Source: a virus
Taxonomy: Duplodnaviria; Caudoviricetes
DNA: 33,048 bases
IMG/VR virus record: IMGVR_UViG_3300008255_000086
Span: 1 to 33,048 of that record
Strand: one strand, 5' to 3'
Program-made: the position numbers and the translations under genes
Part shown: one piece after another, positions 4,198 to 31,735 of the stretch
Layout of the letters: every line of letters starts with the position of its first letter
How positions within the stretch are numbered: the stretch's first letter is position 1
Notes under the pieces: model-generated
The model's database searches: none
Told to the model about the DNA's origin: nothing
The model's input: the letters and a program-made list of their open reading frames with translations, nothing else

Positions 4198-4228
4198 CAA
4201 ATAATCCAAAAATCAGTGGAATGATTAA

Positions 4229-6016
4229 ATGGATAAAGAACTCTCAAACCTCATAAAAACACAGGAGAAAGACTATATAAATGGAACTACAACAATATCC
4301 AAGTATGTTGATTATTCAATGTATGAAGATATCCAAAAGATTGAAGCATACTCTAATTCAAAGTTCACATCAGGAGACACAGACGCTCTTGGTAGAGAAA
4401 AACCTTTCTTTAACATCGTAACAAGTGCAACCAATATCTGGTATCGAGCAACTGATATCGACAGAAAGAACATCAAGTTAAGAGCAACAAAAGCAAAGCA
4501 CTGGATTGCATCTTTCTTGGCTAATATAGTCCTTCAAAATTGGATGCGAAAAGATAACTTCGGTGTATTCCTTAACGATTGGGGATATTCACTTTCTAAG
4601 TACGGTTCATCAGTAACCAAGTGGGTAGAAAAAGACGGAAAACTCCATAGAGCAGTTGTTGATTGGAATAAACTTATTGTTGACCCAGTAGACTTTTACC
4701 AAAACCCTGTTATTGAGATACTAGAACTCACACCCGCTCAAATCAAAAAGAATCCTTCGTATGACAAAGACCAAGTGAAAGCACTTATTGATACTGTTGC
4801 TACACGAGAAAACCTAGACGGTCAACCCAAGGATAATAAGACTGGATATATTAAACTCTATGAGATTCATGGAGAACTTCCACTTTCATACATTACAGGC
4901 AAACCAGAAGACGAAGATACATACGAACAACAAATGCATGTTGTATCTCTCCAAGAAACAAAAGACGGAGAAAAAGAAACCTTCTCACTCTATTCAGGTC
5001 GAGAGGCTAACAATCCATACTTTATTACTCATCTTATCAAGGAGGAGGGCAAAACACTCGCTATGGGGGCTGTTAAGTACCTATTCGAGGCACAATGGAT
5101 GACCAACCACACAGCAAAGAATATTAAAGACCAACTAGACCTTGCTTCAAAGCTAATTTTCCAAACATCAGACGGGAACTTTGTTGGACAAAACGCACTT
5201 AATGCTATTGAAACAGGACAAATCCTAATTCACCAAATGAATCAACCTCTTTCAACTGTTCCTAACGGTTCACACGATATCTCACAACTCCAAGCCTTCC
5301 AACAACAATGGAAACAAAACGGTAATGAAATGACGGGTATTTCAGAGGCTATGCAAGGTGCTACACCTAAATCAGGTACAGCATGGAGACAAACAGAAGC
5401 AATTCTTCAAGAGTCACACTCACTCTTTGACCTTATGACACAAAACAAAGGACTTGCTATTGAAGAAATGATGAGAGAGTATGTTATTCCTTTCATCAAG
5501 AAACAACTCAACAATTCAGAAGAAATTACAGCAATACTAGAAGCTCACGATGTAGAGAAAATTGATAAACTATATATTAAATCAGAAGTTACTAAGTTTG
5601 CTAAGGAAGAAATTAAACAACAACTACTTAATGGAGAAATCCCACTACCAGTAGACACACAAGGTATCGAACAAGACATACAAGCACAACTATCAGAACT
5701 AGGAAATCAAAGATTCTTTAAACCATCTGAAATAGAAGACAAGACATGGAAAGAAATATTTAAAGACTTTGAATGGGAAGTAGAAGTAGATGTTACAGGA
5801 GAATCAAGTGCAGCAAGCGAAAACCTCCAAACACTTGTAACTCTATATTCAAACCTTATCCAATCAGGAAACATGGATAATGCTAACAAGGTTATGAAGA
5901 AAATACTAGAAATCACACAAGCCTTCTCACCAGTAGAACTTATGGAAATGAAAGCACCTGCTCCACAGGTAGCACCAACTCAACCATTACCAGAAATGCC
6001 CGTTGAAACAACATAG
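4229..6016 (+). CDS. Portal protein (P22/podovirus-like head-tail connector)
   Basis: 595 aa mostly helical protein after terL; TGISEAMQG...TA motif typical of podoviral portals. Confidence 0.8.
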   Translation: MDKELSNLIKTQEKDYINGTTTISKYVDYSMYEDIQKIEAYSNSKFTSGDTDALGREKPFFNIVTSATNIWYRATDIDRKNIKLRATKAKHWIASFLANIVLQNWMRKDNFGVFLNDWGYSLSKYGSSVTKWVEKDGKLHRAVVDWNKLIVDPVDFYQNPVIEILELTPAQIKKNPSYDKDQVKALIDTVATRENLDGQPKDNKTGYIKLYEIHGELPLSYITGKPEDEDTYEQQMHVVSLQETKDGEKETFSLYSGREANNPYFITHLIKEEGKTLAMGAVKYLFEAQWMTNHTAKNIKDQLDLASKLIFQTSDGNFVGQNALNAIETGQILIHQMNQPLSTVPNGSHDISQLQAFQQQWKQNGNEMTGISEAMQGATPKSGTAWRQTEAILQESHSLFDLMTQNKGLAIEEMMREYVIPFIKKQLNNSEEITAILEAHDVEKIDKLYIKSEVTKFAKEEIKQQLLNGEIPLPVDTQGIEQDIQAQLSELGNQRFFKPSEIEDKTWKEIFKDFEWEVEVDVTGESSAASENLQTLVTLYSNLIQSGNMDNANKVMKKILEITQAFSPVELMEMKAPAPQVAPTQPLPEMPVETT

Positions 6017-6046
6017 TGGGCAGTTATCAACTAAAAAATCAGAGAT

Positions 6047-6562
6047 ATGAATAAAAACAAGATGAGGTTCTCAGAAGCAGAAATCTCTTTGATACAAGCA
6101 ACTTTCAAAGATGACGATGCACTGATTGAACTACGAAAGCACTTCTTACAAGTTAAAGACTCAAAGAAGTTTACTACAAAGGCGGTTAAGGCTCTTATTG
6201 CTAAGACCTTTTTGCCACAAATCGACCCAGAAGCACCACTTAATCAAATAGTGGACTTCAACCTAATTACAGCAGTACGAGATAAAGAGATTGACTCTGC
6301 GTACCAAGCAGTATTAGTACAAAAGATTGTTATTGATTACTTCCAAGACAGATTAGATGCACTTGAAGGAAAATCAACAAACAAGATTCTATTTAAAGAC
6401 TTGGACACAATCACAGAAGACAAAGAAAAAACAGTTATGAACTTTATCGCTCGACAATCAATTGTTTCACTTATTGAGTCAGGACTATCTCAGTTAAATG
6501 TCCTTGCTAATCAATCAATGGAAGATTTGCTAAAAGCTTTGGAGAAGAACAGTTCAAAATAA
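6047..6562 (+). CDS. Hypothetical protein in head module
   Basis: ORF track; between portal and scaffold. Confidence 0.75.
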   Translation: MNKNKMRFSEAEISLIQATFKDDDALIELRKHFLQVKDSKKFTTKAVKALIAKTFLPQIDPEAPLNQIVDFNLITAVRDKEIDSAYQAVLVQKIVIDYFQDRLDALEGKSTNKILFKDLDTITEDKEKTVMNFIARQSIVSLIESGLSQLNVLANQSMEDLLKALEKNSSK

Positions 6563-6565
6563 CCA

Positions 6566-6581
6566 ATATGGTATAATTAAA
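6566..6581 (+). promoter_or_regulatory. Late-type promoter ATATGGTATAATTAAA
   Basis: 16-mer identical at 12495 and 18775; upstream of scaffold and capsid genes. Confidence 0.75.
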
Positions 6582-6634
6582 TTATAAACATAGTCCACTA
6601 AAGGACTTTAAAAAACGAATAATTAGACAAAACT

Positions 6635-7186
6635 ATGACAAATGAAGAACAAGAGGTTATCGACTCACAAAACGATACTGAGGAAACAGTAACTGACAAT
6701 GAAGAGGAACTAGAAATAGACCTTGACGAAGAAGTGGAAGAAGATGTTGACGCTCTTAAAAAAGAACTCGCAACATTGAAAGCTCAAAAGGCACATTGGA
6801 AGAAGAAAGCGAATACTCCAAAAGAGGATTCACCAAAATCAGAGAAAAACGAGTCTAAAAACTCAGACATCTCGACTACCGATATGTACTCTTTAATTAA
6901 GGCTGATGTAGCACCAGAAGATATTGCAATCGTTCAAAAGTTTGCACGAACAGAGGGTGTATCAATACAAGAAGCATTAAAAGACAGTGTACTTAAAAGT
7001 ATTCTTGATAAACAAGTTGAAACAAGGAAGACTTCACAGGCTACCAGTACTAGTGCGACACGAAAAAGTGTTGGACAGGTATCGGAAGAAACTCTTTATG
7101 AAACTGCTCGAACAGGTAAAATGCCTGAATCTGATGCAGACTTCAAAAGACTTGCAGAAGCTCGACTCAATCGTTTCAACAAATAA
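6635..7186 (+). CDS. Capsid scaffolding protein (putative)
   Basis: Very acidic N-terminus plus coiled coil, immediately upstream of the capsid gene. Confidence 0.7.
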   Translation: MTNEEQEVIDSQNDTEETVTDNEEELEIDLDEEVEEDVDALKKELATLKAQKAHWKKKANTPKEDSPKSEKNESKNSDISTTDMYSLIKADVAPEDIAIVQKFARTEGVSIQEALKDSVLKSILDKQVETRKTSQATSTSATRKSVGQVSEETLYETARTGKMPESDADFKRLAEARLNRFNK

Positions 7187-7224
7187 AAACCAGTGGGTTA
7201 ATAAAATTATAACCCAAAAATAAA

Positions 7225-8079
7225 ATGGCAAATACCATCGCATCACGAGTTTATCGTGACAAATATCGAAGGGCAACACTAGATACATTACTAAGACGAG
7301 CTCTTATTGCAGAAAAAGTTTGTGCAGTAGATAGTTCAGATGTAAAACGAATTCAATCACCTTACAGTTCAACTCCAACAGCAGTAGTTCAAGCAATCGC
7401 AGGTACATATACACCAGCAGAGTACACTACAACTGATGACACATTGACTGTAACAGATGAATTCATCGTTTCAGAACACATCTATGACTTTGAAGAAGTA
7501 CTAACACAATTCGACATTTTCGCAGCACGAACAGAACAACAAATGTTTGAAGTGGCTAACAAAATCGACAAATTCGTTCTTAACAACCTTTGTGAAGATG
7601 CAACAGGTGCTTACACTACTCCAGCAGGAGGGTTCTCAGCAGCAAACATCAACACAATCATGTCTAATCTTGCAGCTAAAGTAGCAGGATTTGCAGACGC
7701 TTACAACGGACTTTTCCTTGTAATCGAAAACACAGAAGTAGCAGGATTTGTTCAAGCACAAGCAACAAACGGATTCTCATTCTCAGATATGGCTCTTAAA
7801 AACGGATTCATGAACTCATACATGGGTATCGACATCCATGTAACACGAGCAGGAACTTTCGCAGATGAAACTCTTGGAACAACAACTTACACAAACGCTG
7901 GACACCGAGTATTCGGAGTTAAGAATGTGACAACATACGCTTCACCACGAGGAGTACGATTCGAAGAAAAATCAGTTTCAGGTAAAACTGGACTTGAAGT
8001 AGTTACTTGGGGATACATTGGATTCAAACTATGGGCTCCAAAAACAGACCTCATTGTTGACATCACAGTATCAGCATAG
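7225..8079 (+). CDS. Major capsid protein (HK97 fold, P22 coat-like)
   Basis: 284 aa; VANKID helix, GFMNSYMGIDIHVT and YIGFKLW motifs; strongly biased codon usage; follows scaffold. Confidence 0.85.
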   Translation: MANTIASRVYRDKYRRATLDTLLRRALIAEKVCAVDSSDVKRIQSPYSSTPTAVVQAIAGTYTPAEYTTTDDTLTVTDEFIVSEHIYDFEEVLTQFDIFAARTEQQMFEVANKIDKFVLNNLCEDATGAYTTPAGGFSAANINTIMSNLAAKVAGFADAYNGLFLVIENTEVAGFVQAQATNGFSFSDMALKNGFMNSYMGIDIHVTRAGTFADETLGTTTYTNAGHRVFGVKNVTTYASPRGVRFEEKSVSGKTGLEVVTWGYIGFKLWAPKTDLIVDITVSA

Positions 8080-8156
8080 TTATACACCCCTTTTGTGGGG
8101 GTAGTGGTCACAGTTTACCCACTGATTCTGTGACTACTACTCCCCCCGAAGGACTA
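8077..8156 (+). ncRNA. Structured 3' element after capsid gene with anti-leader loop
   Basis: Stem 8101-8113/8128-8140 (13 bp, one G-U) extended by GGGG/UCCC and CCUUU/GAAGG; closed by UAGU (stop codon)/ACUA; 14-nt loop UUUACCCACUGAUU. Confidence 0.75.
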
Positions 8157-8169
8157 ATATAAAATAATT

Positions 8170-8322
8170 ATGGCAACAAAGAAAGCAACAAAGAAAGTAG
8201 AAGAAAAAGTGGAAAAAGTAGTAAATTCAAAACTAGCAGAACTCATTGAAAAATATAAAGTTCAAAACCCTGCAAAGTATGAATTGAAGAAAGCAGAATT
8301 AGAAGCTAAACTCAATAAATAA
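8170..8322 (+). CDS. Small Lys/Glu-rich protein, 50 aa
   Basis: Hand-translated MATKKATKKVEEKVEKVVNSKLAELIEKYKVQNPAKYELKKAELEAKLNK. Confidence 0.75.
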   Translation: MATKKATKKVEEKVEKVVNSKLAELIEKYKVQNPAKYELKKAELEAKLNK

Positions 8323-8324
8323 TT

Positions 8325-8582
8325 ATGGCAGTACCTAATGGATTAGACCCACAATTTGGTGGAGTAGCAGGTTCGGGAACTGACATTGCTACAACAGCAG
8401 GAGGAGCAAAAGTACAAAATATCGGACTTGGTGGAATTGGTCTGTATATTGGTTCAGGAGCACCAACTGTTTCAGCAATTAAAGGTTCTCTATATATCCG
8501 AACAGATGGTTCATCATCATCAACTCGACTATATGTGAACAACGGAACAACAACTTGGGTTGCTGTAACAACAGCATCTTAG
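8325..8582 (+). CDS. Small virion protein (decoration/fibre-like)
   Basis: GSGAPTVSAIKGSLYIRTDG...RLYVN...W motif common in phage structural/fibre proteins. Confidence 0.65.
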   Translation: MAVPNGLDPQFGGVAGSGTDIATTAGGAKVQNIGLGGIGLYIGSGAPTVSAIKGSLYIRTDGSSSSTRLYVNNGTTTWVAVTTAS

Positions 8583-8625
8583 TTTCCACTCAGCCTCTCT
8601 ATATGGGAGGTTGGACTGGTAACTA
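8580..8625 (+). other. Intergenic hairpin starting on the TAG stop codon
   Basis: UAGUU/AACUA, CCA/UGG and 10-bp inner stem 8590-8599/8605-8614; no U-tract follows. Confidence 0.65.
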
Positions 8626-8635
8626 AAATATCAAT

Positions 8636-9373
8636 ATGAGCATACAGTTTTCAAACACAACTACAAAGGCAGGAATTTTACAAAGAATCGAAGATGCTTG
8701 TGGATTTAACGATGGAGATATTACAGGTAACTCAGTACGACTTGCTAAATTCACAGCAAAAGTAAACTCAGCAGTAGATGAAGTGACCTCTATTGCCCTC
8801 AAATCGGCTGCTAGTTGGCAGTATGATGACTCTAACCATACAGACTACCCAATCATGACTACAGACCTCGTATCAGGGCAACAAGACTATTCGTTTATAT
8901 CAGATGGTTCAGGAAACTTGGTGTTAGATATTTACAAGGTGATGATTAAACTCCCAGACGGAACTTGGGTAGAAATTGACCCAGTAGATAGAAACTTACA
9001 AGAAGAAACTATGGACTCTTTTGATAACACAGTTTCAGGAACTCCAACACGATACGACAAACTCGGTAACGGAATCTTTTTAGATAATGTCCCAGATTAT
9101 AACTCAGAAGAAGGACTTAAAGTCTACATCAATCGGGAAAGTACATACTTCCTAACAACAGATACTACAAAGAAAGCGGGATTTGTAGGATTGTTTCATG
9201 ATTACCTCTATTTAAAACCTTCTTACGAGTATGCACGAGATAAAGACCTCTCAAATGTTGCTCGTTTGGAGAAAGATGTTGTGTTGATGCAAGAAGCAAT
9301 CAGACAGCATTATGCAACACGAGAGAGAGATATTAAAAGGAAAATGACACCATTAACAACAAATACAAGATAA
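8636..9373 (+). CDS. Head-tail adaptor / tail tubular protein A-like
   Basis: TDLVSGQQDYS, SGTPTRY and FHDYL motifs resemble podoviral adaptor proteins; position after capsid. Confidence 0.65.
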   Translation: MSIQFSNTTTKAGILQRIEDACGFNDGDITGNSVRLAKFTAKVNSAVDEVTSIALKSAASWQYDDSNHTDYPIMTTDLVSGQQDYSFISDGSGNLVLDIYKVMIKLPDGTWVEIDPVDRNLQEETMDSFDNTVSGTPTRYDKLGNGIFLDNVPDYNSEEGLKVYINRESTYFLTTDTTKKAGFVGLFHDYLYLKPSYEYARDKDLSNVARLEKDVVLMQEAIRQHYATRERDIKRKMTPLTTNTR

Positions 9374-9374
9374 C

Positions 9375-9842
9375 ATGATTAAAGAAACATTAAAAAAACT
9401 ACAAGGAACATTCCACTTTGAACTAAGAGATAAAGAAGGAAACCTTAAAGATACATGGGAAGTAAAAAACCTAGTAACAAATGCAGGATTTGCACAACTT
9501 GCTTTACTTGCAGGAGATGCTTCTGCAACACCGTTCACTTACCTAGCAGTAGGAACATCAGCAACAGCACCAGCAGTAACTGATACAACTCTCAATGCAG
9601 AAATAACTGATTCAGGGCTTGAGAGGGCTTCTGGGACTGTTTCACGAGTAACTACAACCGTAACAAACGATACATACCAAATCACTTATACTTGGACAGT
9701 ATCAGGTTCTAAGACCATTGAAGAAGTTGGAGTATTCAACGATGCTTCAGCAGGGACAATGCTGTCACACGCACTCACTACTTCAAAAGCAGTTACATCA
9801 GGAGAAACACTAACGGGTCTATATAAACTGCAGATTTCTTGA
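9375..9842 (+). CDS. Tail fibre/collar-type structural protein
   Basis: KNLVTNAG...YLAVGTS...DTTLNAE...EVGVFN pattern typical of tail-collar/fibre N-terminal modules. Confidence 0.65.
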   Translation: MIKETLKKLQGTFHFELRDKEGNLKDTWEVKNLVTNAGFAQLALLAGDASATPFTYLAVGTSATAPAVTDTTLNAEITDSGLERASGTVSRVTTTVTNDTYQITYTWTVSGSKTIEEVGVFNDASAGTMLSHALTTSKAVTSGETLTGLYKLQIS

Positions 9843-9848
9843 TAGAAT
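9840..9848 (+). promoter_or_regulatory. Extended -10 (TGATAGAAT) for the HNH gene
   Basis: Overlaps the upstream TGA stop; ends 8 nt before ATG 9857, the same spacing as at 1518 and 12495. Confidence 0.45.
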
Positions 9849-9856
9849 AAAGGTAT

Positions 9857-10414
9857 ATGAGATATAAGCAATATATAAAGAAAGATTGTGGACATTGCAA
9901 AATATCTTTTGAGGTACCACCAAGGAATGCACACAGAATATTTTGTTCCATAACATGTTCAAACGCAAAAGGAAAATGGCTTGGGAAGAAAAGAAGTCAA
10001 GAAACTATTGAGAAAATCAGCAAGACAAAGACTGGGAACTCGTTCGCAAACTCTGGTTCATTTAAAAAAGGACAAACACCATGGAATAAAGGAAAAATAT
10101 ATGAAGCAATCCTTGGAGAAAATCACCCAAATTGGAAAGGAGGAGTTACAGACATCAACAAGAAAATAAGACACAGTATAGAGTACAACATTTGGAGAAA
10201 GGCAGTGTACGCAAGAGATAACTGGACTTGCCAACATTGTAAAGTAAAGCAAAGATTTCCAGTAGCACACCACATTAAAACCTTCAAAGACTACCCAGAA
10301 CTTAGGTTTGATGTAGATAACGGACTAACCTTATGCCGTTCGTGTCACAAAAAAGTACACACAGAAATAGGTTGCAAAACAAAATTTACTAAAAGATTAT
10401 TAACAAACGCATAA
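9857..10414 (+). CDS. HNH homing endonuclease with NUMOD3-like DNA-binding region
   Basis: CxxC...FCSxxC, KRSQETIEKIS, GENHPNWKGG, RDNWTCQHC...HHI...NGLTLCRSCHKKVH. Confidence 0.88.
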   Translation: MRYKQYIKKDCGHCKISFEVPPRNAHRIFCSITCSNAKGKWLGKKRSQETIEKISKTKTGNSFANSGSFKKGQTPWNKGKIYEAILGENHPNWKGGVTDINKKIRHSIEYNIWRKAVYARDNWTCQHCKVKQRFPVAHHIKTFKDYPELRFDVDNGLTLCRSCHKKVHTEIGCKTKFTKRLLTNA

Positions 10415-10415
10415 T

Positions 10416-10877
10416 ATGGCAACAATAAAACAAACATACGAATCATCAGACACACTTACAATAACCATTGCATCATTAGCTAACAGTTCTGGTCGTTGTT
10501 CTACTGCACTTGATAACACATCAAACCTAGATATCACAGCAGATGTTGGAGTCAAAGTAAAAACAAACGCATCAGGTACATCAGCAACTGGTTATGTATC
10601 TGTATATCTAGTTCGGTCTTACGATGGAACTTCTTATGATGATGCTTTTGCTGGTTCAGATGCAGCCTTCACACCTGTAAACGCAACACTACTTGGAACA
10701 CTCAACACGGTAGCAAACGCAACTACTTACTACAAAACATTTGATGTTGGAGAACTTGGACTCACACTCCCTCAAAAATGGGCTATTGCAATCGTGAACT
10801 CATCAGGTGCAGCACTTGACTCAACAGCAGGAAACCACGAAATCAAGACAACTCGTAAATATTATTCAGTAGTCTAA
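10416..10877 (+). CDS. Putative tail structural protein
   Basis: Beta-rich, Ser/Thr/Ala-rich; in tail module. Confidence 0.6.
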   Translation: MATIKQTYESSDTLTITIASLANSSGRCSTALDNTSNLDITADVGVKVKTNASGTSATGYVSVYLVRSYDGTSYDDAFAGSDAAFTPVNATLLGTLNTVANATTYYKTFDVGELGLTLPQKWAIAIVNSSGAALDSTAGNHEIKTTRKYYSVV

Positions 10878-10887
10878 CTAAAATGCT

Positions 10888-12495
10888 ATGAGAAATACAT
10901 CAGCATTTCAACCTAACCTAAGTGACTCTCTTAATCAGGGGTTAGTTTCATATTGGAAGTTAGACGAATCATCAGGGAATGCTTCTGATAGTGTTGGTAG
11001 TAATACTGGAACAAACACCAATGTAACTTATTCAACAGGAAAAATAAATAATGGTGCAGTATTTAATGGTACAAGTGCTAAGTTGGTGTCAACAATAAGT
11101 AAGGGAGCAGGAGATGAAACGGTCTCTTTTTGGTTTAATTCTGGTTCATTGTCTGGTACTAGATGGATTTTTTCAAACTGGGTTAGTCCATTTAGTTTTC
11201 TTATATATACTTCCAGCACAACACTAAACCTGTCTACAAGAAATGCCGCAAACACAGTAACTCTTAATGTCAGTGCTGGAACAATATCAACGGGTACTTG
11301 GTATCATGTGGCATACACCAGAATATCTGGTTCTGTGCAGTGGTATCTAAACGGTGTTGCGACAGGTTCAGCACAAGCATCGGCAAATAATGGGTGGACT
11401 GGTAATACTGTAATTGGTTCTACGGGAACAAGTGATTGGTTTAGTGGTACGGTAGATGAAGTTGGTTGGTGGAATCGTGCCTTGTCTGCCGCAGAAATCA
11501 CAGCCCTATACAACTCAACAGCAGGAACAACATATCCATTAAGGTCATATCCATCTTCTACCAAAGCATACTACCCACTTAATGGAAATGCCAACGATTA
11601 CAGCGGAAACCAAAACACAGGAACACCGACTGACATCACTTACCCACAAGGAAGATTTGGACAGGCGGCGAAGTTTAATGGGACAAACAGTCAAATAGGC
11701 ATAGGAACTGGATGGTCTTTTAATAATGCAACCTTTACCACTGTTGTGTGGATGAGATGTACAGAGACTGGCTCTACTGACACTCGTCCTGTTCTGGGAC
11801 AAGGTACTAGCCAATCAACTAATAATCTTTTAGAAATCGGAAGAAGAGCATCTAATGGCAAGTTTACTTGTGCATTTTATGCAAACGACTTAGACTCAAA
11901 CACATCGGTATCAAGTAAAGGCGATTGGGAGTGTTGGATTGTTACCTATAACTCAAGTTCTCGGGAACGAATAATATATAGAAATGGTGTGCGAGATGCA
12001 TCAGATACAGCATCAGCTAACTTCAATGGTTCTGGTACGGTCTATATTGGTTCCTCTAAGTTTGTAACCCCTCACTATTTTTTGGGTAGTATAGATGAAG
12101 TTATCATTGAAAACAGAGTTTGGACAGCAAAAGAAGTAGAAACATATTATAGAAAGAGTATGTTGAATTATAAACAAAACATATTTGCTCGTTTCTTACA
12201 ATCATTCTCAATCTCTGAATCACTCTCACTAGCAGAAACAACATCAGCACTTAGAGCAAGAAACTTCACAACATCAGAATCACTCTCACTAGCAGAAACA
12301 ATCACAGCATTAAAAGGTATTTCATTTACTATTGCAGAGAGTCTAGGACTTGTAGAAGCATATAGTTACGCACGGACTTGGGTATTTAGTATTGCAGAGA
12401 GTTTGGGATTGGTGGAGGTTAAAGCACAGGTAAAGAAGAAGTGGTTAAATGCTACAAAAACAGTATCTAGTTGGACAAATAGAAATAAGAACTAA
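10888..12495 (+). CDS. Tail fibre/adhesin with two LamG (concanavalin A-like) domains
   Basis: GLVSYWKLDE, WYHVAYT, FSGTVDEVGWWNRALS; second copy YYPLNGNAND...GSIDEVII. Confidence 0.88.
   Translation: MRNTSAFQPNLSDSLNQGLVSYWKLDESSGNASDSVGSNTGTNTNVTYSTGKINNGAVFNGTSAKLVSTISKGAGDETVSFWFNSGSLSGTRWIFSNWVSPFSFLIYTSSTTLNLSTRNAANTVTLNVSAGTISTGTWYHVAYTRISGSVQWYLNGVATGSAQASANNGWTGNTVIGSTGTSDWFSGTVDEVGWWNRALSAAEITALYNSTAGTTYPLRSYPSSTKAYYPLNGNANDYSGNQNTGTPTDITYPQGRFGQAAKFNGTNSQIGIGTGWSFNNATFTTVVWMRCTETGSTDTRPVLGQGTSQSTNNLLEIGRRASNGKFTCAFYANDLDSNTSVSSKGDWECWIVTYNSSSRERIIYRNGVRDASDTASANFNGSGTVYIGSSKFVTPHYFLGSIDEVIIENRVWTAKEVETYYRKSMLNYKQNIFARFLQSFSISESLSLAETTSALRARNFTTSESLSLAETITALKGISFTIAESLGLVEAYSYARTWVFSIAESLGLVEVKAQVKKKWLNATKTVSSWTNRNKN
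12202..12420 (+). repeat. Four 60-bp (20-aa) tandem coding repeats FxxxESLxLxE
   Basis: gaatcactctcactagcagaaaca at 12217 and 12277; attgcagagagt at 12331 and 12391. Confidence 0.85.
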
Positions 12496-12510: not shown

Positions 12511-12514
12511 CAAT

Positions 12515-23890: not shown

Positions 23891-23893
23891 CAA

Positions 23894-23917
23894 AACGCCC
23901 CTAGCAATAGGGGTGTT
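23894..23917. terminator. Bidirectional terminator between convergent operons
   Basis: AACGCCCCTA-gcaa-TAGGGGTGTT with flanking A and T tracts. Confidence 0.75.
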
Positions 23918-24694: not shown

Positions 24695-24714
24695 ATTGTT
24701 ACTTGTTAGTGCTT

Positions 24715-24882: not shown

Positions 24883-25297
24883 TTTGTGATTCGATTAGTA
24901 ACTCCAGCTGTGCCAGTCCTCTCCAACATACCTTTGCAAGATGGTACACACCATCATCATCAACAATTTCTCCCGAAGCGTGGTCAATTAAATGTCTTGT
25001 AAGTGCATCGAGTTGGTCTTTTGATTTACTTCTATCCCAGTGGAGTGGTTGTCCTTCGAGGTGTTGTTTATTTCCAGCAAGACTAGCCCTTGAAACTTCT
25101 GCGAGTGCTTTTGGAAAGTAAGCTAATACTCCTGAAAAAATAGGGGTGTTCTTGCGTTCCTGTGCCTTGTCTACTTCAACTTCTTTTGAGTATCTTCTAA
25201 CTGTGTATAATTCTCCACACTCAATACAACAACCTTCATCGTCTGTATGTACGATGTCTGATGTGTATGGGTCTTTACATGTACATATTTCATTCAT
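24875..25297 (-). CDS. dATP/dGTP diphosphohydrolase-like (DUF5664) protein with N-terminal Cys cluster
   Basis: RKNTPIFSGVLAYFPKALAEVSRAS..GNKQH...LHWDRSKS...ALTRHL...DDDGVYHLAKVCWRGLA. Confidence 0.8.
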   Translation of the reverse strand: MNEICTCKDPYTSDIVHTDDEGCCIECGELYTVRRYSKEVEVDKAQERKNTPIFSGVLAYFPKALAEVSRASLAGNKQHLEGQPLHWDRSKSKDQLDALTRHLIDHASGEIVDDDGVYHLAKVCWRGLAQLELLIESQNE

Positions 25298-25319
25298 AGT
25301 TTTATTTTAATTTATTTAT

Positions 25320-25357
25320 AAAAAAATACCACCAACTTATCAACAGATAAGTGGTGG
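25320..25357 (-). terminator. Rho-independent terminator after phosphoesterase gene
   Basis: CCACC(A)ACTTATC-aaca-GATAAGTGGTGG with an A-run on the + strand (U-tract on the - strand). Confidence 0.65.
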
Positions 25358-25358
25358 A

Positions 25359-26636
25359 TTAAGGAATCGGAACATCTGTAATCACAGGGAGTCCTTGATT
25401 CACAGTGATATACAGATAACCAGAGAGAGAGGAGTAACCCAATCCTTTGGAGTAACTGTTGCCAGTGAAGATAGAAGGTGCGTGAATAATTCTGTGGTTA
25501 AGACCATCTGCAAGTGTCTTTCGAGTATGCAAGTGAGCAAAGATACAGAGGTTAAACAGACCAGCGAATCCATATTGATTGATAATCAGTTCAGGATTTT
25601 TCTTCGAGAGAAGAAGATGACCGTGTGAAGGCACAAACCCACAGTTGTCCATTTTGAAAGGAGCAACATCAGGCGACCATGACAATTTCATTTTGTTTCC
25701 AAAACGAGCGTTGAGGACATAGTGTACCCATTGCACAACTTCTCCGATAGTATCTTCTTTGTTGTTGCTTGAAGTTCGGTCATGATTTCCTGCGAGGAGT
25801 ATAACCTCACCAACATTGTTCACAGATGAGATGAACTTTGTAAGGACTTCAATGACTTGGATAGTGGCTTTGACACCATACCCATACTTCTTGTCGATGT
25901 TCTTCCATGAGTTGATATGATTCAAACCAGTGAAGGATTCGATGAGGTCACCATTGATAACAATAATATTATTCTTTGCTTTTCTCTGGTTCGCATCTTT
26001 TGCAACATGAGCAAGTTTCTTTTCAAGCACTTCATGGTTGAAGGCTGGAAGGTTTCTCTCCGCTTCAATGTCAGCTCCATAGTGCAAGTCAGCGATATGA
26101 ACAATGGCATTACCAATCTTCACATCACGACTCTTCCGTACAACAGGTGCTACTTTACAAGCAGTGATATATTCCAGCAGCTCATTTTCAAATTGATGCC
26201 TTCTATATTCAGCATCTGCGACCACCTTGATTGCTTTTGAGTATGCCTTATTTCTTTGCTTGGTGTCTTCGTGTTCGATGACAGCACGCATGTTTTTGGG
26301 CGAATACTTTTCTGCAATTTTAGATGCTATCATATCACACGCCTCTTTTTCAGAAACAAGCGATAGGGAATATGGACTGAACACATCGGAATCTTTTACA
26401 AGGTCGAAGGTTCGTTTAACAGATTGCCATTGAAGTGCATCAAAACCATGTTTGTTTTGCACCTGTACAGCAGACATATTAAGTCCATGCTTTGAGTATT
26501 CATAGAAGATAGTGTCGAGTTCTTCAACTGTTAGTTCGATAACTCCACGCTTATACTTCCAAGAAACACTCTCTCCGTTGACAAAGAACTTTTCTTCTTG
26601 TTCTTCGACAACAGTTTTTACTGTTTTCTTTTTCAT
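25359..26636 (-). CDS. Calcineurin-like metallophosphoesterase with N-terminal extension
   Basis: ADLH, NGDLIE, GNHDR, SHGH and AHLH motifs in canonical order. Confidence 0.88.
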   Translation of the reverse strand: MKKKTVKTVVEEQEEKFFVNGESVSWKYKRGVIELTVEELDTIFYEYSKHGLNMSAVQVQNKHGFDALQWQSVKRTFDLVKDSDVFSPYSLSLVSEKEACDMIASKIAEKYSPKNMRAVIEHEDTKQRNKAYSKAIKVVADAEYRRHQFENELLEYITACKVAPVVRKSRDVKIGNAIVHIADLHYGADIEAERNLPAFNHEVLEKKLAHVAKDANQRKAKNNIIVINGDLIESFTGLNHINSWKNIDKKYGYGVKATIQVIEVLTKFISSVNNVGEVILLAGNHDRTSSNNKEDTIGEVVQWVHYVLNARFGNKMKLSWSPDVAPFKMDNCGFVPSHGHLLLSKKNPELIINQYGFAGLFNLCIFAHLHTRKTLADGLNHRIIHAPSIFTGNSYSKGLGYSSLSGYLYITVNQGLPVITDVPIP

Positions 26637-26661
26637 TATTTTAGAGTGCTGTTCATTTTTA

Positions 26662-26670
26662 ATTATAACA
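26662..26670 (-). promoter_or_regulatory. Extended -10 TGTTATAAT for phosphoesterase gene
   Basis: + strand attataaca; DnaA-like TGTGGAAAA nearby at 26736-26744. Confidence 0.55.
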
Positions 26671-26812
26671 TCTACTTGCTCTTGACTTTCGTTGATTTAA
26701 TTATAGAATGGATAACTTTTTTGTACACCAAAACCTGTGGAAAACTTTTTTATGAAATATGCGTTCTAAGGGGTGTTTATGTGCTAAATGACTACTTACT
26801 CGTATTTAATAT

Positions 26813-26831
26813 AAAAAGCCCGTATAAGGGC
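26813..26831 (-). terminator. Short terminator-like hairpin
   Basis: - strand GCCC-ttatac-GGGC-TTTTT just after the stop at 26845. Confidence 0.45.
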
Positions 26832-26844
26832 ATTCAGGGGTTAA

Positions 26845-27162
26845 TTACAGTAGATTAGATGCCTTAATGAAGTCCACTTTAATGCTATTCAAGAAATCAA
26901 TATCTTTTGAAGTAAAATTATAACCCGTTCTCGCTAAAAACTTTAAAGAAAGCGATAGTAAAAAAACATGTTCTTTTTGTGTGTGTCCAATATGTGAGTG
27001 ACACTCAGAACAAATCAAACTCGCATTTACAGGAGATGACGACACTCGCCCATAGGTGTGGTTTAATTCTAAACCTTTATCACTCCTTCCACACATCCAG
27101 CACCCATATTCATATAAGAATAAGTTGCGTGTATTTTGAGAAAAAGGGTGCTTTAATTTCAC
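26845..27162 (-). CDS. HNH-fold / NinG-like protein
   Basis: CWMCG...ELNH..GR...N...ICSECHSH. Confidence 0.65.
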   Translation of the reverse strand: MKLKHPFSQNTRNLFLYEYGCWMCGRSDKGLELNHTYGRVSSSPVNASLICSECHSHIGHTQKEHVFLLSLSLKFLARTGYNFTSKDIDFLNSIKVDFIKASNLL

Positions 27163-27662
27163 TAAAATTCAGGGTCATATTCTTCTTGTGGATATTCAAC
27201 CTTTTCAATCTTATCTTCAAAGTGTAAATCTCTTGCAAGGTTATATTCCTGTGCATTAGGCATTTCTTCGCCACGTGACTCTGCAACCCACCTTCTAATC
27301 TTTTCCATATACATAAACGCTTCGTTTGTTTTTACATTGTTATCCATTATTGAGTTTACTATTCTCGTTTCTTTTTTAGAGATTGGATTGTACATATCAG
27401 TTCCATTAAATTCTTCTTTTAAGAACGAGTGTAATTCATCTATTGAATAAGTTTTAAGGTGGTCGTCTAGGTTTTTTATAAAAGGCAACCACGCTCCGAA
27501 GTAAAAGCCCCTAAGTTCATCTGATACAGTTGCCTTTTTCTTTCTAGGTATTATCTCTAAGTAATCTCCATCGTTTTCTTTCAGGTGGTCAATAAACATG
27601 TTGCGTACTTGTGGAGCAAATACCATACCTTTGTTTTTTATTTGTGCAATGAAGCGTTTCAC
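27162..27662 (-). CDS. NinB/YbcN-like recombination protein (putative)
   Basis: RGFYFG...DELHSFLKEEF...YMEKIRRWVAE pattern; acidic PEF tail. Confidence 0.55.
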   Translation of the reverse strand: MKRFIAQIKNKGMVFAPQVRNMFIDHLKENDGDYLEIIPRKKKATVSDELRGFYFGAWLPFIKNLDDHLKTYSIDELHSFLKEEFNGTDMYNPISKKETRIVNSIMDNNVKTNEAFMYMEKIRRWVAESRGEEMPNAQEYNLARDLHFEDKIEKVEYPQEEYDPEF

Positions 27663-27663
27663 C

Positions 27664-27888
27664 TTAGTACAAAGTTAGTCCATTAGTGATAATGAACATC
27701 ACTCCTTGATAGATATAATACCCAACTGCTAGTGTCATGATTGTATATCCTATCTTTTCATACCAAGTTGTTTTAGTTGTTTCACTAAATCCAAAGAAGT
27801 CATCACTATCTACTAGACGAAAGTCTGCTGAGTAATCTCTTTTGTTTAATCTTGTTTTCTTTGTTGCGAAGTCTTTATAGTTTTCCAT
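27664..27888 (-). CDS. Small protein with C-terminal TM helix
   Basis: IGYTIMTLAVGYYIYQGVMFII. Confidence 0.7.
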   Translation of the reverse strand: MENYKDFATKKTRLNKRDYSADFRLVDSDDFFGFSETTKTTWYEKIGYTIMTLAVGYYIYQGVMFIITNGLTLY

Positions 27889-27895
27889 GTTTGTT

Positions 27896-27919
27896 TTGTT
27901 ATTTGTTAATCCTGTCTAC
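27896..27919 (-). repeat. 24-nt leader GTAGACAGGATTAACAAATAACAA, copy 1
   Basis: Identical to 31712-31735 (+). Confidence 0.9.
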
Positions 27920-27925
27920 CTCTAT

Positions 27926-28013
27926 ATAATACACTATCAGTATTTATTGTAAAGTGAGTGAGTGTGGATAACTGTGCATAACTTTTACACAAGAACAAGC
28001 CAGATGATATAAT
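27926..28013. promoter_or_regulatory. Divergent early promoters flanking two tandem DnaA boxes
   Basis: Leftward TTTACA-16-TATTAT (27953-27926); TGTGGATAA 27963-27971 and TGTGCATAA 27973-27981; rightward TGATATAAT 28005-28013. Confidence 0.7.
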
Positions 28014-28018
28014 TAAGA

Positions 28019-28169
28019 GGTAAATAACGAATTGGACAAGAAGTTATTTATTTGATAAGTTGCATTATTCAGAGTCTTGAAAAGAAAGCGGGGAGGGTGA
28101 AAACCCAACGGTTCGCAACTACCGTAAGTCCAACCCTTCTTTCTTTTTAGGACTTTAATTTATTAAAGT
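28019..28169 (+). ncRNA. Structured 5' leader of replication initiator
   Basis: Hairpin 28021-28050; 16-bp stem 28073-28088/28139-28154 enclosing GGGU-GAAA-ACCC and ACGGU/ACCGU hairpins. Confidence 0.7.
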
Positions 28170-28913
28170 ATGGCAAATAACAAACAGCGATACATAAACA
28201 CTCGCTTGTGGAACGATACTTATGTATCAATGCTCGACCCAATAGAGAAACTATTATTCGTCTATCTACTGACGAATGAGCATACAAACATATCAGGAAT
28301 CTATGAGATGCCATTAAAAATAATGGCTGTGGAAACAGGTCTTGATGAATCAATGTTGAAGAAAGTTTTTGGCAGATTAAAGTCAAAAGTGAATTATGTT
28401 GATGGCAGGGTTATAATAAAGAACTTTATCAAACACCAAGAAACAGGAAGTCCGAATGTTCGGAAGGGGATTTTGAATTGTTTAGAAGAATTAAACAAAG
28501 ACTTCTTAAAAGATGTTGTAAACAAAGGAATTTATGTACTCCCTATATACTATATAGATACCCTATGTATACCCTATGTAGAGGGTCGGAACTATTTAGA
28601 TTTAGATTTAGATTCTAATTTAGATTTAGATTCTACGGAACTGCCTCAAAAATCTTCTAAAAAGAAAATAGAAAAGGAACTCTTTGGAGAACTTGAAAAT
28701 GTAAAACTAACAAACGAAGAGTATCAGAAGTTGATTGATAAGTTTGGAGATAAAAATACAAACATACTTATTTTTGAGTTAGATACCTACATAGGTTCAA
28801 AAGGAGATAAATATAAATCTCACTACGCAACCCTGTTGAACTGGGCTAAAAGAAAATGGGAACAACAGGAGGAGAAGAAAATTATCAAAAATAATAACAT
28901 AGCATTTACCTAA
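28170..28913 (+). CDS. Phage replication initiator / replisome organiser (DnaD-like)
   Basis: RYINTRLWND...KLLFVYLLTN...SGIYE N-terminal wHTH; repetitive linker; C-terminal NVKLTNEEYQKL...KYKSHYATLLNW. Confidence 0.8.
   Translation: MANNKQRYINTRLWNDTYVSMLDPIEKLLFVYLLTNEHTNISGIYEMPLKIMAVETGLDESMLKKVFGRLKSKVNYVDGRVIIKNFIKHQETGSPNVRKGILNCLEELNKDFLKDVVNKGIYVLPIYYIDTLCIPYVEGRNYLDLDLDSNLDLDSTELPQKSSKKKIEKELFGELENVKLTNEEYQKLIDKFGDKNTNILIFELDTYIGSKGDKYKSHYATLLNWAKRKWEQQEEKKIIKNNNIAFT
28541..28636 (+). repeat. Iteron-like repeats inside initiator gene (candidate origin)
   Basis: ATACCCTATGT x2 at 28558-28579, related CCCTATAT at 28541; TTTAGA x5 at 28595-28630. Confidence 0.6.
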
Positions 28914-28914
28914 T

Positions 28915-29292
28915 ATGAACTTAAAAGTAAAAGTAATCTGTGGTTTTAGAAAAGACCAACAATACACAATAGACGCAGAAGAATCACACAAAGCATACTA
29001 CCTTTTTTTGAATCCAGAAAAGAGAGGAATATTTAAAAATGGAGTTGCTCTTATTGGAAAAAACATACAATCAATAGAACCAGACTATCACGCAACAATG
29101 GGCTGGAATGAATCACATCAAATTGGTGGTGATGATTGGAATGAAATAAATAAATACAATTTAAAAAACTTAATCTCACACAAACTTGAAGACGCAAAGA
29201 AGGTTGCTAACTTATTAGCAGAAAATCCGAGAGTTTTCGCCCTACCCCTTACAGAAGTAAAACAAACATTACTTGAATCCAGCATAAAATAG
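28915..29292 (+). CDS. Hypothetical protein
   Basis: TAA-T-ATG coupled to the initiator gene. Confidence 0.75.
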   Translation: MNLKVKVICGFRKDQQYTIDAEESHKAYYLFLNPEKRGIFKNGVALIGKNIQSIEPDYHATMGWNESHQIGGDDWNEINKYNLKNLISHKLEDAKKVANLLAENPRVFALPLTEVKQTLLESSIK

Positions 29293-29294
29293 GC

Positions 29295-29336
29295 TGTGGA
29301 TAAACCTTTTGACTATCTCATACACTTTGATATACT
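29295..29336 (+). promoter_or_regulatory. DnaA box + TTGACT-16-TATACT (extended -10)
   Basis: TGTGGATAA 29295-29303, TTGACT 29309-29314, TGaTATACT 29328-29336. Confidence 0.7.
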
Positions 29337-29364
29337 AACTATGTTATTGGATTAACAATAAAAA

Positions 29365-29554
29365 ATGCAATTAAAAGGAACAAAACTTAATGTATACAGG
29401 TACTTGAAAGAAGAACCTCGTAGTCGAGAAAGGAAGAATAAATCTCGTGCATTGGAGAAAAGTACTTGCTGATTACCCAGCATTACGAGGAAGTGACTAC
29501 TTCAAAGGCAAGAAGAAATCACGAGAGAAGGTATTACAAGACTTAAAAGAATAA
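29365..29554 (+). pseudogene. Frameshifted small basic protein
   Basis: Frame 1 stops at 29472; from 29453 another frame reads WRKVLADYPALRGSDYFKGKKKSREKVLQDLKE*, ending 2 nt before the erf start. Confidence 0.6.
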
Positions 29555-29556
29555 AT

Positions 29557-30099
29557 ATGGAAAACTTAATAAAAGAGTTAGTAAAAATTCAAAAGACACT
29601 CAAGGCACCAAAAAATCAATACAACAGTTTTGGTAAATATAAGTACCGAAACTGTGAAGATATACTAAACGCAGTAAAACCTTTGCTACCAGAAAATATT
29701 ACCACTTACACAACCGATGAAATTGTATTAATTGGGGATAGGTACTACATTAAATCATATGCAGTATTTACAGATGGTACAAATAAAGTTGAAGTAAATG
29801 GTTTTGCCCGAGAATCACTTACCAAAAAAGGTATGGACGATTCACAAATTACAGGTACAGCATCTTCATACGCTAGAAAATATGCACTCAATGGATTGTT
29901 TGATATTGACGATTCAAAAGATGCCGATACAGACGAACACACAAACCAAACCAAAGCAGAAATAAACCCTGATTTGTTACTTGTGATAAAAGAAGCAACA
30001 ACCGAAGAAGAACTAAGAAAAATTTGGGAAGAACACAAAACAGTAAAAGGTCTTGGAAAAGAAATAACAAAAAGAAAAAATGAAATTACACAAAGTTAA
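29557..30099 (+). CDS. erf: ERF family single-strand annealing protein
   Basis: KAPKNQYNSFGKYKYR..EDIL, QITGTASSYARKYALNGLF. Confidence 0.9.
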   Translation: MENLIKELVKIQKTLKAPKNQYNSFGKYKYRNCEDILNAVKPLLPENITTYTTDEIVLIGDRYYIKSYAVFTDGTNKVEVNGFARESLTKKGMDDSQITGTASSYARKYALNGLFDIDDSKDADTDEHTNQTKAEINPDLLLVIKEATTEEELRKIWEEHKTVKGLGKEITKRKNEITQS

Positions 30100-30682
30100 A
30101 CAAAGAACTCCTGAATGGTTTGACTTGCGAAAAGAATATCCTTTAACAGCAAGTAATGCACAAGCCATAGGAAACAATGGAAAAGGTCTTGAAACATTGT
30201 GTTGGGATAAACTAGCCGAGATACACTCGAAGACACCAAAAGAACAATACACAAACGAACATTTAGAAAGAGGTATTGAGTTAGAAAACGAAGCACGAAC
30301 CATTTACGCAATGGAAACAGGTAACAAAGTTGAAGAAGTTGGGTTTGTGACTAATGAAGAAATATCAAAAGTTGCAGGTGCAAGCCCAGATGGAATAGTA
30401 AATGAAGATGGGCTTGTAGAAATTAAGTGCTTCGCAGACACCAAACACTTTAAAATGATTGTAAATGGACTTGAAATAGAGTCACAGTATATGTGGCAAA
30501 TGCAAATGCAATTACTTATTACGGGTAGAAAATGGGTAGATTTTGTCGCCTACAACCCAAACTACGACAAATCAATCCTGATTCAAAGGGTTGAGACCGA
30601 TGAAGTTGTGCAAGAGAAGATAAAAACAGGATTGAAGATTGGGGAGAAATTATTAGAAGAAATTAAACAAAAAATAAAATGA
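30080..30682 (+). CDS. YqaJ / lambda exonuclease family
   Basis: QRTPEWF..R, TAS, RGIELE, ASPDG, EIKC, QMQMQL. Confidence 0.92.
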   Translation: MKLHKVKQRTPEWFDLRKEYPLTASNAQAIGNNGKGLETLCWDKLAEIHSKTPKEQYTNEHLERGIELENEARTIYAMETGNKVEEVGFVTNEEISKVAGASPDGIVNEDGLVEIKCFADTKHFKMIVNGLEIESQYMWQMQMQLLITGRKWVDFVAYNPNYDKSILIQRVETDEVVQEKIKTGLKIGEKLLEEIKQKIK

Positions 30683-31089
30683 ATTTAAACAAAACACTTA
30701 TTGCTGGAAACTTAACCCGTGACCCAGAAAAGAAAGCACTGCCAACAGGAAGTAATGTTACAAACTTTTCAGTAGCAGTAAACAGAGTATGGTATAAGGA
30801 CGAACAAAAACAAGAGGCGACCGAATACATAAACATTGTCGCTTTTGGAAAACAAGCCGACACAATCGCACAATACTTTAAAAAAGGTTCTTCTATTTTT
30901 GTTGAGGGAAGGATACAAACACGAAGCTGGGAAGACAAAGAGGGAAACAAGAAATACGCAACAGAAGTTATTATGGAGAACTTTCAGTTTGTAAATTCAA
31001 CGAAGCAAGAAAAACAACCCTTAGAAAAATCAACAGAAGAAATTGAATATCCAGAAGATGATATTTCTCCTGAAGATGTACCATTTTAG
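30679..31089 (+). CDS. ssb: Single-stranded DNA-binding protein
   Basis: LNK..IAGNLTRDPE, VEGRIQTRSWEDKEG, acidic DVPF tail. Confidence 0.96.
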   Translation: MNLNKTLIAGNLTRDPEKKALPTGSNVTNFSVAVNRVWYKDEQKQEATEYINIVAFGKQADTIAQYFKKGSSIFVEGRIQTRSWEDKEGNKKYATEVIMENFQFVNSTKQEKQPLEKSTEEIEYPEDDISPEDVPF

Positions 31090-31192
31090 CGATTAGGCAA
31101 ACATAATTGTTTGCCTACCCTCCGAGAACTTCAAGGACTATTTGTTAATCCCGCTCTGTCTTTATTTCTTAGGGGGTAGATAAACCGTTATG
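31087..31192 (+). ncRNA. Structured 3' element after ssb with anti-leader loop
   Basis: Hairpin 31094-31117 (10 bp); stem 31115-31128/31166-31179; inner stem 31133-31138/31158-31163; 19-nt loop UAUUUGUUAAUCCCGCUCU; UAGCG (stop)/CGUUA (next start) closes the element. Confidence 0.75.
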
Positions 31193-31639
31193 AACAAAAA
31201 ACAAAAATTATTTAAGCATTTAGACGAACATAGATATGCAACCGACAGTGATGTTGCTCGTATTTGGGGTGGAGAACCTAACTGGTCGACAGTAGAAGAA
31301 TATAAACGACAATGGCAAAGACTTGCAAACGACAAGGAGTATTTTGCAGACAAGGAAATATTAGGAATAGAAAAGTGGGGAAGAAAACACCTTGCAGAAT
31401 TGAAAGGTGGACATAGGTATATCAGCAAACTTTTCTATGAAGAACAGAAACCTAGATTCAAAAAAGACTTTTCAAAGCACAGATTTTTCTATAAAGGAAA
31501 TGAACTTTACAATATCAAAGAAGCGGAGTGGTCATTTAGCGGATTTGATTTAAAGGCAAACTGGAAGAATAAGGACGAAGATAATCGAGAATGTTTGGGC
31601 TATTTTTACTTAAAAGACCTAGAAATTTTTGATAAATAA
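31190..31639 (+). CDS. Hypothetical protein
   Basis: ORF track. Confidence 0.7.
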   Translation: MNKKQKLFKHLDEHRYATDSDVARIWGGEPNWSTVEEYKRQWQRLANDKEYFADKEILGIEKWGRKHLAELKGGHRYISKLFYEEQKPRFKKDFSKHRFFYKGNELYNIKEAEWSFSGFDLKANWKNKDEDNRECLGYFYLKDLEIFDK

Positions 31640-31653
31640 GGCTTAAAACTACA

Positions 31654-31705
31654 TGTGGATAACTCAAGTTAAAACACTTGCACCTTTAATACACTATGTT
31701 ACACT
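31654..31705 (+). promoter_or_regulatory. DnaA box + TTGCAC-16-TACACT (extended -10)
   Basis: TGTGGATAA 31654-31662, TTGCAC 31678-31683, TGtTACACT 31697-31705. Confidence 0.65.
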
Positions 31706-31711
31706 ATAAAT

Positions 31712-31735
31712 GTAGACAGGATTAACAAATAACAA
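31712..31735 (+). repeat. 24-nt leader GTAGACAGGATTAACAAATAACAA, copy 2
   Basis: Identical to 27896-27919 (-); begins about 7 nt after the -10 in both copies. Confidence 0.9.

Follow-up and report, generated by a model that had tools for sequence, protein, structure and literature searches.

A hairpin downstream of the capsid gene covaries with the capsid leader in Shine-Dalgarno-poor tailed phages and may activate capsid translation

The phage genome and its structured elements

The virus record IMGVR_UViG_3300008255_000086 is a tailed-phage genome of 33,048 nt, which was analysed over its entire length and is called the window in the following. It encodes terminase, portal, major capsid and tail proteins as well as a replication initiator, Erf, YqaJ and a single-strand DNA-binding protein (SSB). 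We describe a long hairpin just downstream of the major capsid gene, the capsid element, whose loop (the guide loop) is complementary to short sequences (target tags) in the leaders of the capsid and portal genes. A second hairpin, the ssb element, follows the ssb gene. These two were the only long post-stop hairpins revealed by a blind scan of the genome, and their coordinates are given in Table 1 together with those of the other features. The portal protein is without a Pfam or PHROG match, and the gene in front of the capsid gene is presumed, from its position only, to encode the scaffold.

The leaders had been described as free of Shine-Dalgarno (SD) sequences in an initial annotation of this DNA. 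They are indeed SD-poor, as SD-like 4-mers precede only 4 of the 52 starts of the window compared to a background of 12.8%, and the first 25 capsid relatives are equally poor (0-3 SD-like 4-mers per locus).

Table 1. Positions of genes, RNA elements and target sequences in the window.
Feature	Position	Strand	Remarks
Portal-leader hairpin including start codon	4204..4234	+	z -1.97
Portal-leader target tag, 9 nt	4211..4219	+	9 nt upstream of ATG
Portal protein	4229..6016	+	Atlas P22/SU10 portal clusters, TM 0.65-0.89
Extended -10-like TGGTATAAT	6569..6577	+	precedes scaffold, capsid and element; further copies at 3501, 12498, 18778
Capsid-leader target tag, 8 nt	7191..7198	+	26 nt upstream of ATG
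Capsid-leader hairpin	7194..7216	+	5' arm overlaps tag; 3' arm covers A-rich initiation region
Major capsid protein	7225..8079	+	phrog_267, E 7e-9; Atlas capsid clusters, TM 0.79-0.86
Self-complementary 5' arm of capsid element	8085..8102	+	alternative small hairpin, mutually exclusive with long stem
Capsid element, long imperfect stem	8089..8152	+	starts 10 nt past capsid stop; fold z -5.4
Guide loop TTTACCCACTGATT, 14 nt	8114..8127	+	family consensus CCCACCGATT; covaries with capsid leader
Early-leader target, 13 nt	27900..27912	-	11 nt before ATG 27888; -24.8 kcal/mol with whole element
Replication-initiator leader	28019..28167	+	-49 kcal/mol, z -4.96; separate from both elements
Early-leader target, 10 nt	29349..29358	+	6 nt before ATG 29365
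Single-strand DNA-binding protein (ssb)	30679..31089	+	PF00436, E 7e-37
Small hairpin directly past ssb stop	31094..31117	+	centroid structure
ssb element stem	31116..31178	+	starts 27 nt after stop, behind small hairpin
ssb-element loop TATTTGTTAATCCCGCTCT, 19 nt	31139..31157	+	
Early-leader target, 13 nt	31719..31731	+	12 nt before ATG 31744; -21.4 kcal/mol with whole element

The capsid element in related phages

None of 200 shuffled sequences reached the stability of the capsid element, so the structured element that had been proposed for this position is real. A search of the entire window against Rfam gave no match at E up to 1, C4-type RNAs included. No description of the capsid element was found in an open-access literature library, and it may sit unnamed among the 8,495 candidate RNAs from IMG/VR (PMC10690425).

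Four scans for capsid relatives yielded 195 loci including the window. Of these, 167 contain the full gene with an ATG start, and 28 with a partial gene or a non-ATG start were left out. Clustering at 90% identity resulted in 114 clusters, 112 of them with sufficient flanking sequence. In 106 of these 112 non-redundant relatives a stem of at least 16 bp is present no more than 130 nt from the capsid stop. Three loci (L017, L074 and L087), for which the blind fold caught the region of an inserted gene, were kept in the analyses of 106 relatives and left out of those with n=103 and of the opening-cost and portal analyses. The initial annotation let both stems begin on the stop codon; the capsid stem in fact starts at a median of 10 nt after the stop (10th-90th percentile 6-15 nt). 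The next ATG follows at a median of 17 nt past its end. Our model R1 revealed a single family element in each of 18 out of 19 genomes (it was missed in G007).

Double-sided changes were observed in 17 of the 18 consensus pairs of the stem (38 sequences), and in 99 of 103 relatives folding is more stable on the mRNA strand than on the minus strand. A terminator-like U-tract follows the stem in only 5 of 103 relatives, and the element is absent from a terminator scan of the window. Because the stem covaries, the mRNA strand folds better and the U-tract is missing, the comparison of sequences identifies the capsid element as a sense-strand RNA structure and not as an intrinsic terminator. The 5' arm of the element can form a local hairpin of -5 kcal/mol or below in 86 of 103 relatives, compared to 11 of 103 for the 3' arms. 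The family alignment A3 shows no conserved module apart from the stem, the loop and the 5' arm.

Two observations concern individual loci. At L022:9004-9085 and L087:10580-10650, HNH-like genes inserted after the capsid stop bring their own hairpin, with a loop complementary to sequence beside the ATG of the inserted gene, and loop and start possibly form a local pseudoknot. The capsid genes of L006, L019, L022, L069, L108, L192 and others lack the expected in-frame ATG and apparently use TTG, GTG or ATA/ATT-type codons as starts.

The guide loop covaries with the capsid leader

As annotated initially, the guide loop can pair with 9 nt of the portal leader and with 8 nt of the capsid leader of the window. 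Tested in the window only, this complementarity is modest, since 44 of 1000 shuffled loops reach the portal match and 31 of 1000 the capsid match. It is made strong by the relatives, which carry it too. With the loop apex defined without reference to the leaders, 76 of 106 relatives show at least 8 perfect complements between the loop and the cognate capsid leader, and 91 of 106 at least 7. Runs of at least 8 occur in 2.5% of shuffled leaders, in 0.65% of 1385 coding 60-mers, in 4/106 and 0/106 cases for the two stem arms, and in 0/106 for same-sense matches. The cognate duplex energy is -18.2 compared to -14.5 ± 0.26 for permuted partners, a value matched by none of 10000 permutations, a control which ignores relatedness.

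When loop and leader were aligned separately, the seven strongest covarying column pairs included six on one antiparallel diagonal (z 4.1-13, n=103). On the capsid tree at least 61 independent Watson-Crick switches are distributed over 10 core pairs, and of 105 loop differences between 51 independent pairs of tips, 35 are mirrored by the leader, compared to 0-12 in shifted registers. After the cost of opening both partners the predicted net binding energy has a median of -5.75 kcal/mol and is below -3 in 73 of 96 cases (-4.5 in the window). In 17 of 103 capsid leaders the tag core is present at least twice within 100 nt of the ATG. The loop-leader covariation which the initial annotation had suggested to look for in relatives is thus found for the capsid element. 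By this comparative evidence the long-range 3'-5' pairing is under selection, which supports the earlier idea of a private address code as far as the capsid element is concerned.

One could still suspect a DNA or protein-binding motif that occurs in both orientations, or chance. The loop core is highly conserved, one of its positions being C in 97 of 103 relatives, and the capsid match of the window taken by itself has a p of about 0.03-0.04. The compensatory changes are however genome-specific, folding is specific for the mRNA strand, and same-sense matches are lacking. This explanation is very improbable and for the capsid element largely refuted; it stays a candidate for the ssb element.

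A hairpin in the capsid leader covers the start

The initial annotation overlooked that the capsid tag overlaps a hairpin in the leader. In capsid leaders the 5' arm of this hairpin is the end of the tag and the 3' arm lies just before the AUG. The predicted cost of opening the region from -12 to +3 has a median of 7.18 kcal/mol in capsid leaders compared to 3.36 after shuffling of the spacer (p 9e-13, n=81). With the tag bound it falls to 2.95, while blocking a neighbouring window as a control leaves 6.08, and a drop of at least 1 kcal is seen in 69 of 81 leaders against 37 of 81. For the window the corresponding values are 6.8 and, once bound, 2.6 kcal/mol. The 3' arm also tracks the tag: TTCA precedes the ATG in 8/8 leaders with a TGAA-type tag, which represent few lineages, and in 2/58 with a TGGG-type tag. 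By the comparison of sequences the hairpin, which overlaps the tag and would hide the SD-less start, is itself selected. Two of the properties expected of an anti-antisense activator are thus seen, namely a predicted inhibitory hairpin over the initiation region and a guide that pairs with its 5' arm by a pairing under selection.

Initiation without SD sequence requires an unfolded start region (PMC3121790). For that reason activation by strand invasion is the simplest reading of the capsid element. We propose, with a probability of roughly 0.55, that the hairpin is a conserved phage RNA which binds the covarying tag of the capsid leader, unfolds the hairpin that hides the start and activates translation. 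Pairing would begin where the 5' part of the tag is exposed. The loop would then invade the 5' arm of the leader hairpin over about 9-10 bp, a step inferred from the predicted energies, and the A-rich region from -12 to +3 would be freed. Translation of the capsid gene would start only after the element has been transcribed, either in cis, once the mRNA is complete, or in trans with a growing number of copies, and the outcome would be a delay followed by a sharp late switch.

In the capsid leaders of L007, L060, L104, L132, L173, L181 and L215 the tag is succeeded by a second hairpin, which has an AGTCG loop. A complementary partner loop was not found.

The covarying pairing could also serve to close the mRNA. 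The pairing would hold the capsid cistron's 3' end at its leader, and terminating ribosomes would be recycled or delivered to the start, in the manner of the 3' CITEs (elements that enhance cap-independent translation) of plant viruses. Such a function would agree with the tight placement of the stem 6-15 nt after a stop, with a cognate capsid pairing in most relatives and with one element per genome, and it is compatible with opening of the hairpin. It is less easily reconciled with six phages (L017, L020, L021, L022, L087 and L159), in which the element lies 264-1035 nt further downstream behind an inserted or neighbouring gene and the tag of the capsid leader is kept. Tags are also found downstream and in front of several genes, short intergenic spaces bring any element close to a stop, and a ribosome- or factor-binding module was not identified. 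Because the six phages with a displaced element retain the pairing, the hand-back of terminating ribosomes that had been suggested earlier is not required. We regard a closed loop of this kind as unlikely; a tether that concentrates ribosomes is possible.

Portal and other targets of the guide loop

The cognate tag precedes the portal gene in 23 of 83 relatives (0.9 expected). It was also found before a gene for a 171-aa protein (14/89, 1.0 expected), a 245-aa protein (7/75, 1.5 expected) and a 217-aa protein (4/27, 0.1 expected), and is practically missing before the scaffold gene (1/96) and the gene of the large terminase (0/66). The count for a 50-aa gene (10/66) was discarded, as this low-complexity family took in other open reading frames (ORFs). 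In phages with a variant loop, 12 of the 146 leaders other than capsid have the phage's own tag, and 2 have that of the consensus. Over 19 genomes tags occur in 21 of 833 same-strand leaders (0.56 expected), a count for which heuristic starts missed some known targets, those of the window among them.

Binding is also predicted to open the portal leaders (median cost 5.79, bound 2.90, control 4.26, n=21; window 7.0 and 3.4), an effect weaker than that for capsid. The portal duplex ends at a median of 11 nt from the AUG. The portal gene would thus be addressed likewise in about a quarter of the relatives, probably more weakly since the duplex end lies nearer to the AUG.

The short distance at the portal gene would also suit antisense repression, with the element, perhaps after processing, blocking tagged leaders and limiting portal and other low-copy proteins. 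The capsid protein is normally the most abundant one. As capsid is the most conserved target, the end of its tag lies at a median of 26 nt from the AUG and binding is predicted to open its start, repression by the capsid element is quite unlikely. The loop-displayed form is documented for the c4 RNA of P1 (PMC12197685). Among the functions suggested initially, trans-acting repressors are a poor fit for the capsid leader, where the tag is about 26 nt from the AUG and overlaps a hairpin, and the best fit for the ssb element (see below).

Several results weigh against activation as a general explanation. All energies are nearest-neighbour predictions which do not include loop topology. In 30 of 106 capsid leaders there are fewer than 8 perfect pairs, and in L067, L099 and L178 a clear tag or the hairpin is missing. 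Two of 341 opposite-strand leaders in the 19 genomes contain tags (0.32 expected), which bears on the choice between cis and trans. Portal tags are paired downstream no more often than in shuffles (10/21, p 0.92), and no opening is predicted at the tags of the 171-aa (n=13) and 245-aa genes (n=7); therefore activation does not explain all targets. Finally, the stem recurs in G148 behind a distant capsid gene (E 1.6e-4); its loop is another one there and has no match in the capsid leader, so the stem may serve a separate function.

That function might be mRNA stability or processing. The stem would shield a 3' end or be cut by a nuclease, and at the leader the duplex would block 5'-to-3' decay and thereby raise the capsid cistron over neighbouring ones. 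Besides the stem of G148, the conserved alternative hairpin of the 5' arm and the tags without effect on start-site opening are in line with this. The overlap of the leader hairpin with the tag, its cover of the start region and the covariation are left unexplained, however, and a terminator U-tract is rare. As an explanation of the capsid element a stability function is accordingly of low probability, and we favour strand-invasion activation.

The post-capsid hairpin of G148 (L513:2376-2445, L432, L514) has a GGTCG loop. The coding strand contains 27 [AG]GTCG and no CGAC[TC] motifs (counted in overlapping pieces), which suggests another address or an external partner. Long hairpins resembling the stem of the element were seen to show a target tag in their loop in L252 (near 13119), in L087 (11649-11710) and in the leaders of the 245-aa genes of L092, L163 and L220; such hairpins appear suited to loop-loop kissing. 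In the window a further stable post-stop hairpin lies before the 245-aa gene (8580-8625, z -4.26), and it has no match to the capsid loop.

The ssb element

The ssb element folds with a z of -3.85 (reached by 1 of 200 shuffles) and is unrelated in sequence to the capsid element, as model R1 gave no hit. Its loop is complementary to three early leaders over 13, 13 and 10 nt, as the initial annotation had noted. None of 1000 shuffles reaches these run lengths, and in the window the ssb element counts as real; the duplex energy is reached by 36 of 1000, and one other site of the genome does as well. Two of the three targets can extend the pairing into the stem of the element, 31719..31731 into the 3' arm. 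The target leaders are unstructured, the duplexes end 6-12 nt from the AUG, and net binding is predicted at -13, -13 and -6 kcal/mol. The target at 27900..27912 can be reached only in trans, because it is located on the opposite strand.

Homologs of the ssb element were not found. The 19 near-complete relatives have none, and no detectable ssb. Neither were homologs revealed at 113 ssb loci, a weak test since some were dropped for short flanks and most belong to distant SD-using phages. G148, which shares initiator and ssb, lacks the element as well, and an HNH-like gene follows its ssb. Erf relatives were uninformative. The 52 viral matches to a 16-mer of the early leaders were rejected, as they look like single chance hits.

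With unstructured targets close to the AUG, one of them on the opposite strand, repression of early genes in trans fits the ssb element. We give about even odds that it is a separate, lineage-specific trans repressor of the three early leaders. A single mechanism for both elements, as first envisaged, is not borne out, since the ssb targets differ in structure, distance and strand and homologs are missing.

The most far-reaching interpretation would join all these observations. The late mRNA would be closed into a loop, a bacterial counterpart of the 3' CITEs in which a phage-private address replaces the SD/anti-SD helix, opens the start and passes ribosomes from the operon's end back to the capsid and portal starts, with a stoichiometry set by the distance between tag and AUG. 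The ssb RNA would shut early leaders by a second address, and RNA codes would time the infection in SD-less hosts. We consider this rather doubtful.

The sequence TGTGGATAA, which we take to be the DnaA-box consensus, occurs at 27963, 29295 and 31654. Each copy lies upstream of one of the early promoter-like regions that belong to the three leaders matched by the ssb loop. Behind the third of these leaders, the ORF (29365-29560) stops after 35 codons and may be frameshifted or truncated.

The initiator leader, promoter and host

The leader of the replication initiator forms a long stem with a multibranch head. A third pairing proposed there, TTGGAC/GTCCAA, exists in the sequence (28032-28037 and 28128-28133), and as both halves are unpaired in the predicted fold it could possibly form a pseudoknot. 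It gains no support from the controls: a 6-mer pair of that kind is present in 36% of shuffles of the region, and no equivalent was seen by eye in four homologous initiator leaders. These homologous leaders are also structured, though differently, and the one of G005 carries a capsid-element tag. The extended -10-like TGGTATAAT in front of the scaffold gene is a putative promoter.

Patescibacteria of the candidate phyla radiation (CPR) are probably, but not certainly, the host, as had been suggested. The nearest SSBs that bear a taxon name are from Nomurabacteria and Minisyncoccia. Nineteen genome hits are labelled as Patescibacteria groups (7), other taxa (9) or not at all (3). The other taxa include a Blastocatellia contig of 401 kb, with neighbouring genes that use SD sequences, and an alphaproteobacterial contig of 1.9 Mb, whose element also matches its leader. 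No 16S sequence is contained in five metagenome-assembled genomes (MAGs) that hold relatives. In the class of the Parcubacteria MAG, CCTCC is retained by 9 of the 24 16S tails that could be read (8 by script, 1 by eye). Mimicry of 16S by the capsid loop was rejected, as the loop consensus is unlike the 16S tails compared. Host-borne copies of the capsid element were not found in 121 genomes of this class (about 39 candidates scored per genome), where the 4 hits of model R1 were one phage contig and three palindromes without loop.

Comparison with known systems

In about 100 divergent genomes, the capsid element presents unusually clear evidence that long-range pairing of an element at the 3' side with its own gene's leader is selected. 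It suggests how translation can gate late genes that lack an SD site to be hidden. The element measures 75 nt and comes with natural compensatory variants, which makes communication from 3' to 5' on a bacterial mRNA testable; it would moreover be a natural toehold switch of compact size, with variants that provide orthogonal addresses.

Anti-antisense activation by bacterial small RNAs (sRNAs) is known from DsrA and RprA on rpoS and from RNAIII on hla. There as here, an RNA pairs with the 5' arm of an inhibitory hairpin in the leader and thereby releases the initiation region, by prediction in the case of the phages. These are, however, host sRNAs that free an SD sequence, whereas the capsid element is a hairpin loop inside a phage late operon and acts on an SD-less start. 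In the repZ/repA pseudoknot switch of IncI and IncB plasmids a distant loop pairs just upstream of the start on the same RNA and activates translation. That loop lies about 100 nt upstream and serves one gene, while the capsid loop lies about 900 nt downstream, past the stop of its own target.

Among c4-like structured phage RNAs is the CI RNA of P4. A complement displayed in the loop of a structured phage RNA is seen in both of our elements, and the duplexes end at -26 (capsid), -11 (portal) and -6 to -12 (early leaders), which is to be compared with the blocking mode of c4 and CI. The c4 RNA of P1 and P7 (PMC12197685), with a loop complementary to an mRNA of its own phage, is the closest model for the ssb element. 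It represses antirepressor synthesis, in contrast to the capsid element, which is predicted to activate structural genes and has no Rfam match.

The 3' CITEs of plant viruses join a 3' structure to the 5' leader by long-range pairing (PMC5712577). Such pairing is indicated by covariation for the capsid element, and some phage targets are likewise shown in hairpin loops. CITEs are described to bind initiation factors of eukaryotes or subunits of the ribosome; the capsid element has no evident module of this kind, and the host is bacterial. The ribosome termination structure, a local insulator of re-initiation just past the stop (PMC7518266), shares the stable structure right after the stop codon and, as far as the source describes it, is without the sequence-specific loop and the distant partner of the capsid element.

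IsrK of the Salmonella prophage Gifsy-1 pairs with a translationally inactive phage mRNA and makes it active (PMC4825925), as predicted for the capsid element. IsrK is a terminated 5' sRNA that acts in trans on its own read-through transcript and on one ORF. The capsid element instead lies 3' of the capsid gene, is without a U-tract and addresses the leaders of several virion genes. It represents a real, covariation-backed and apparently undescribed family of phage RNAs, which probably works like an anti-antisense activator located 3' of its own target.

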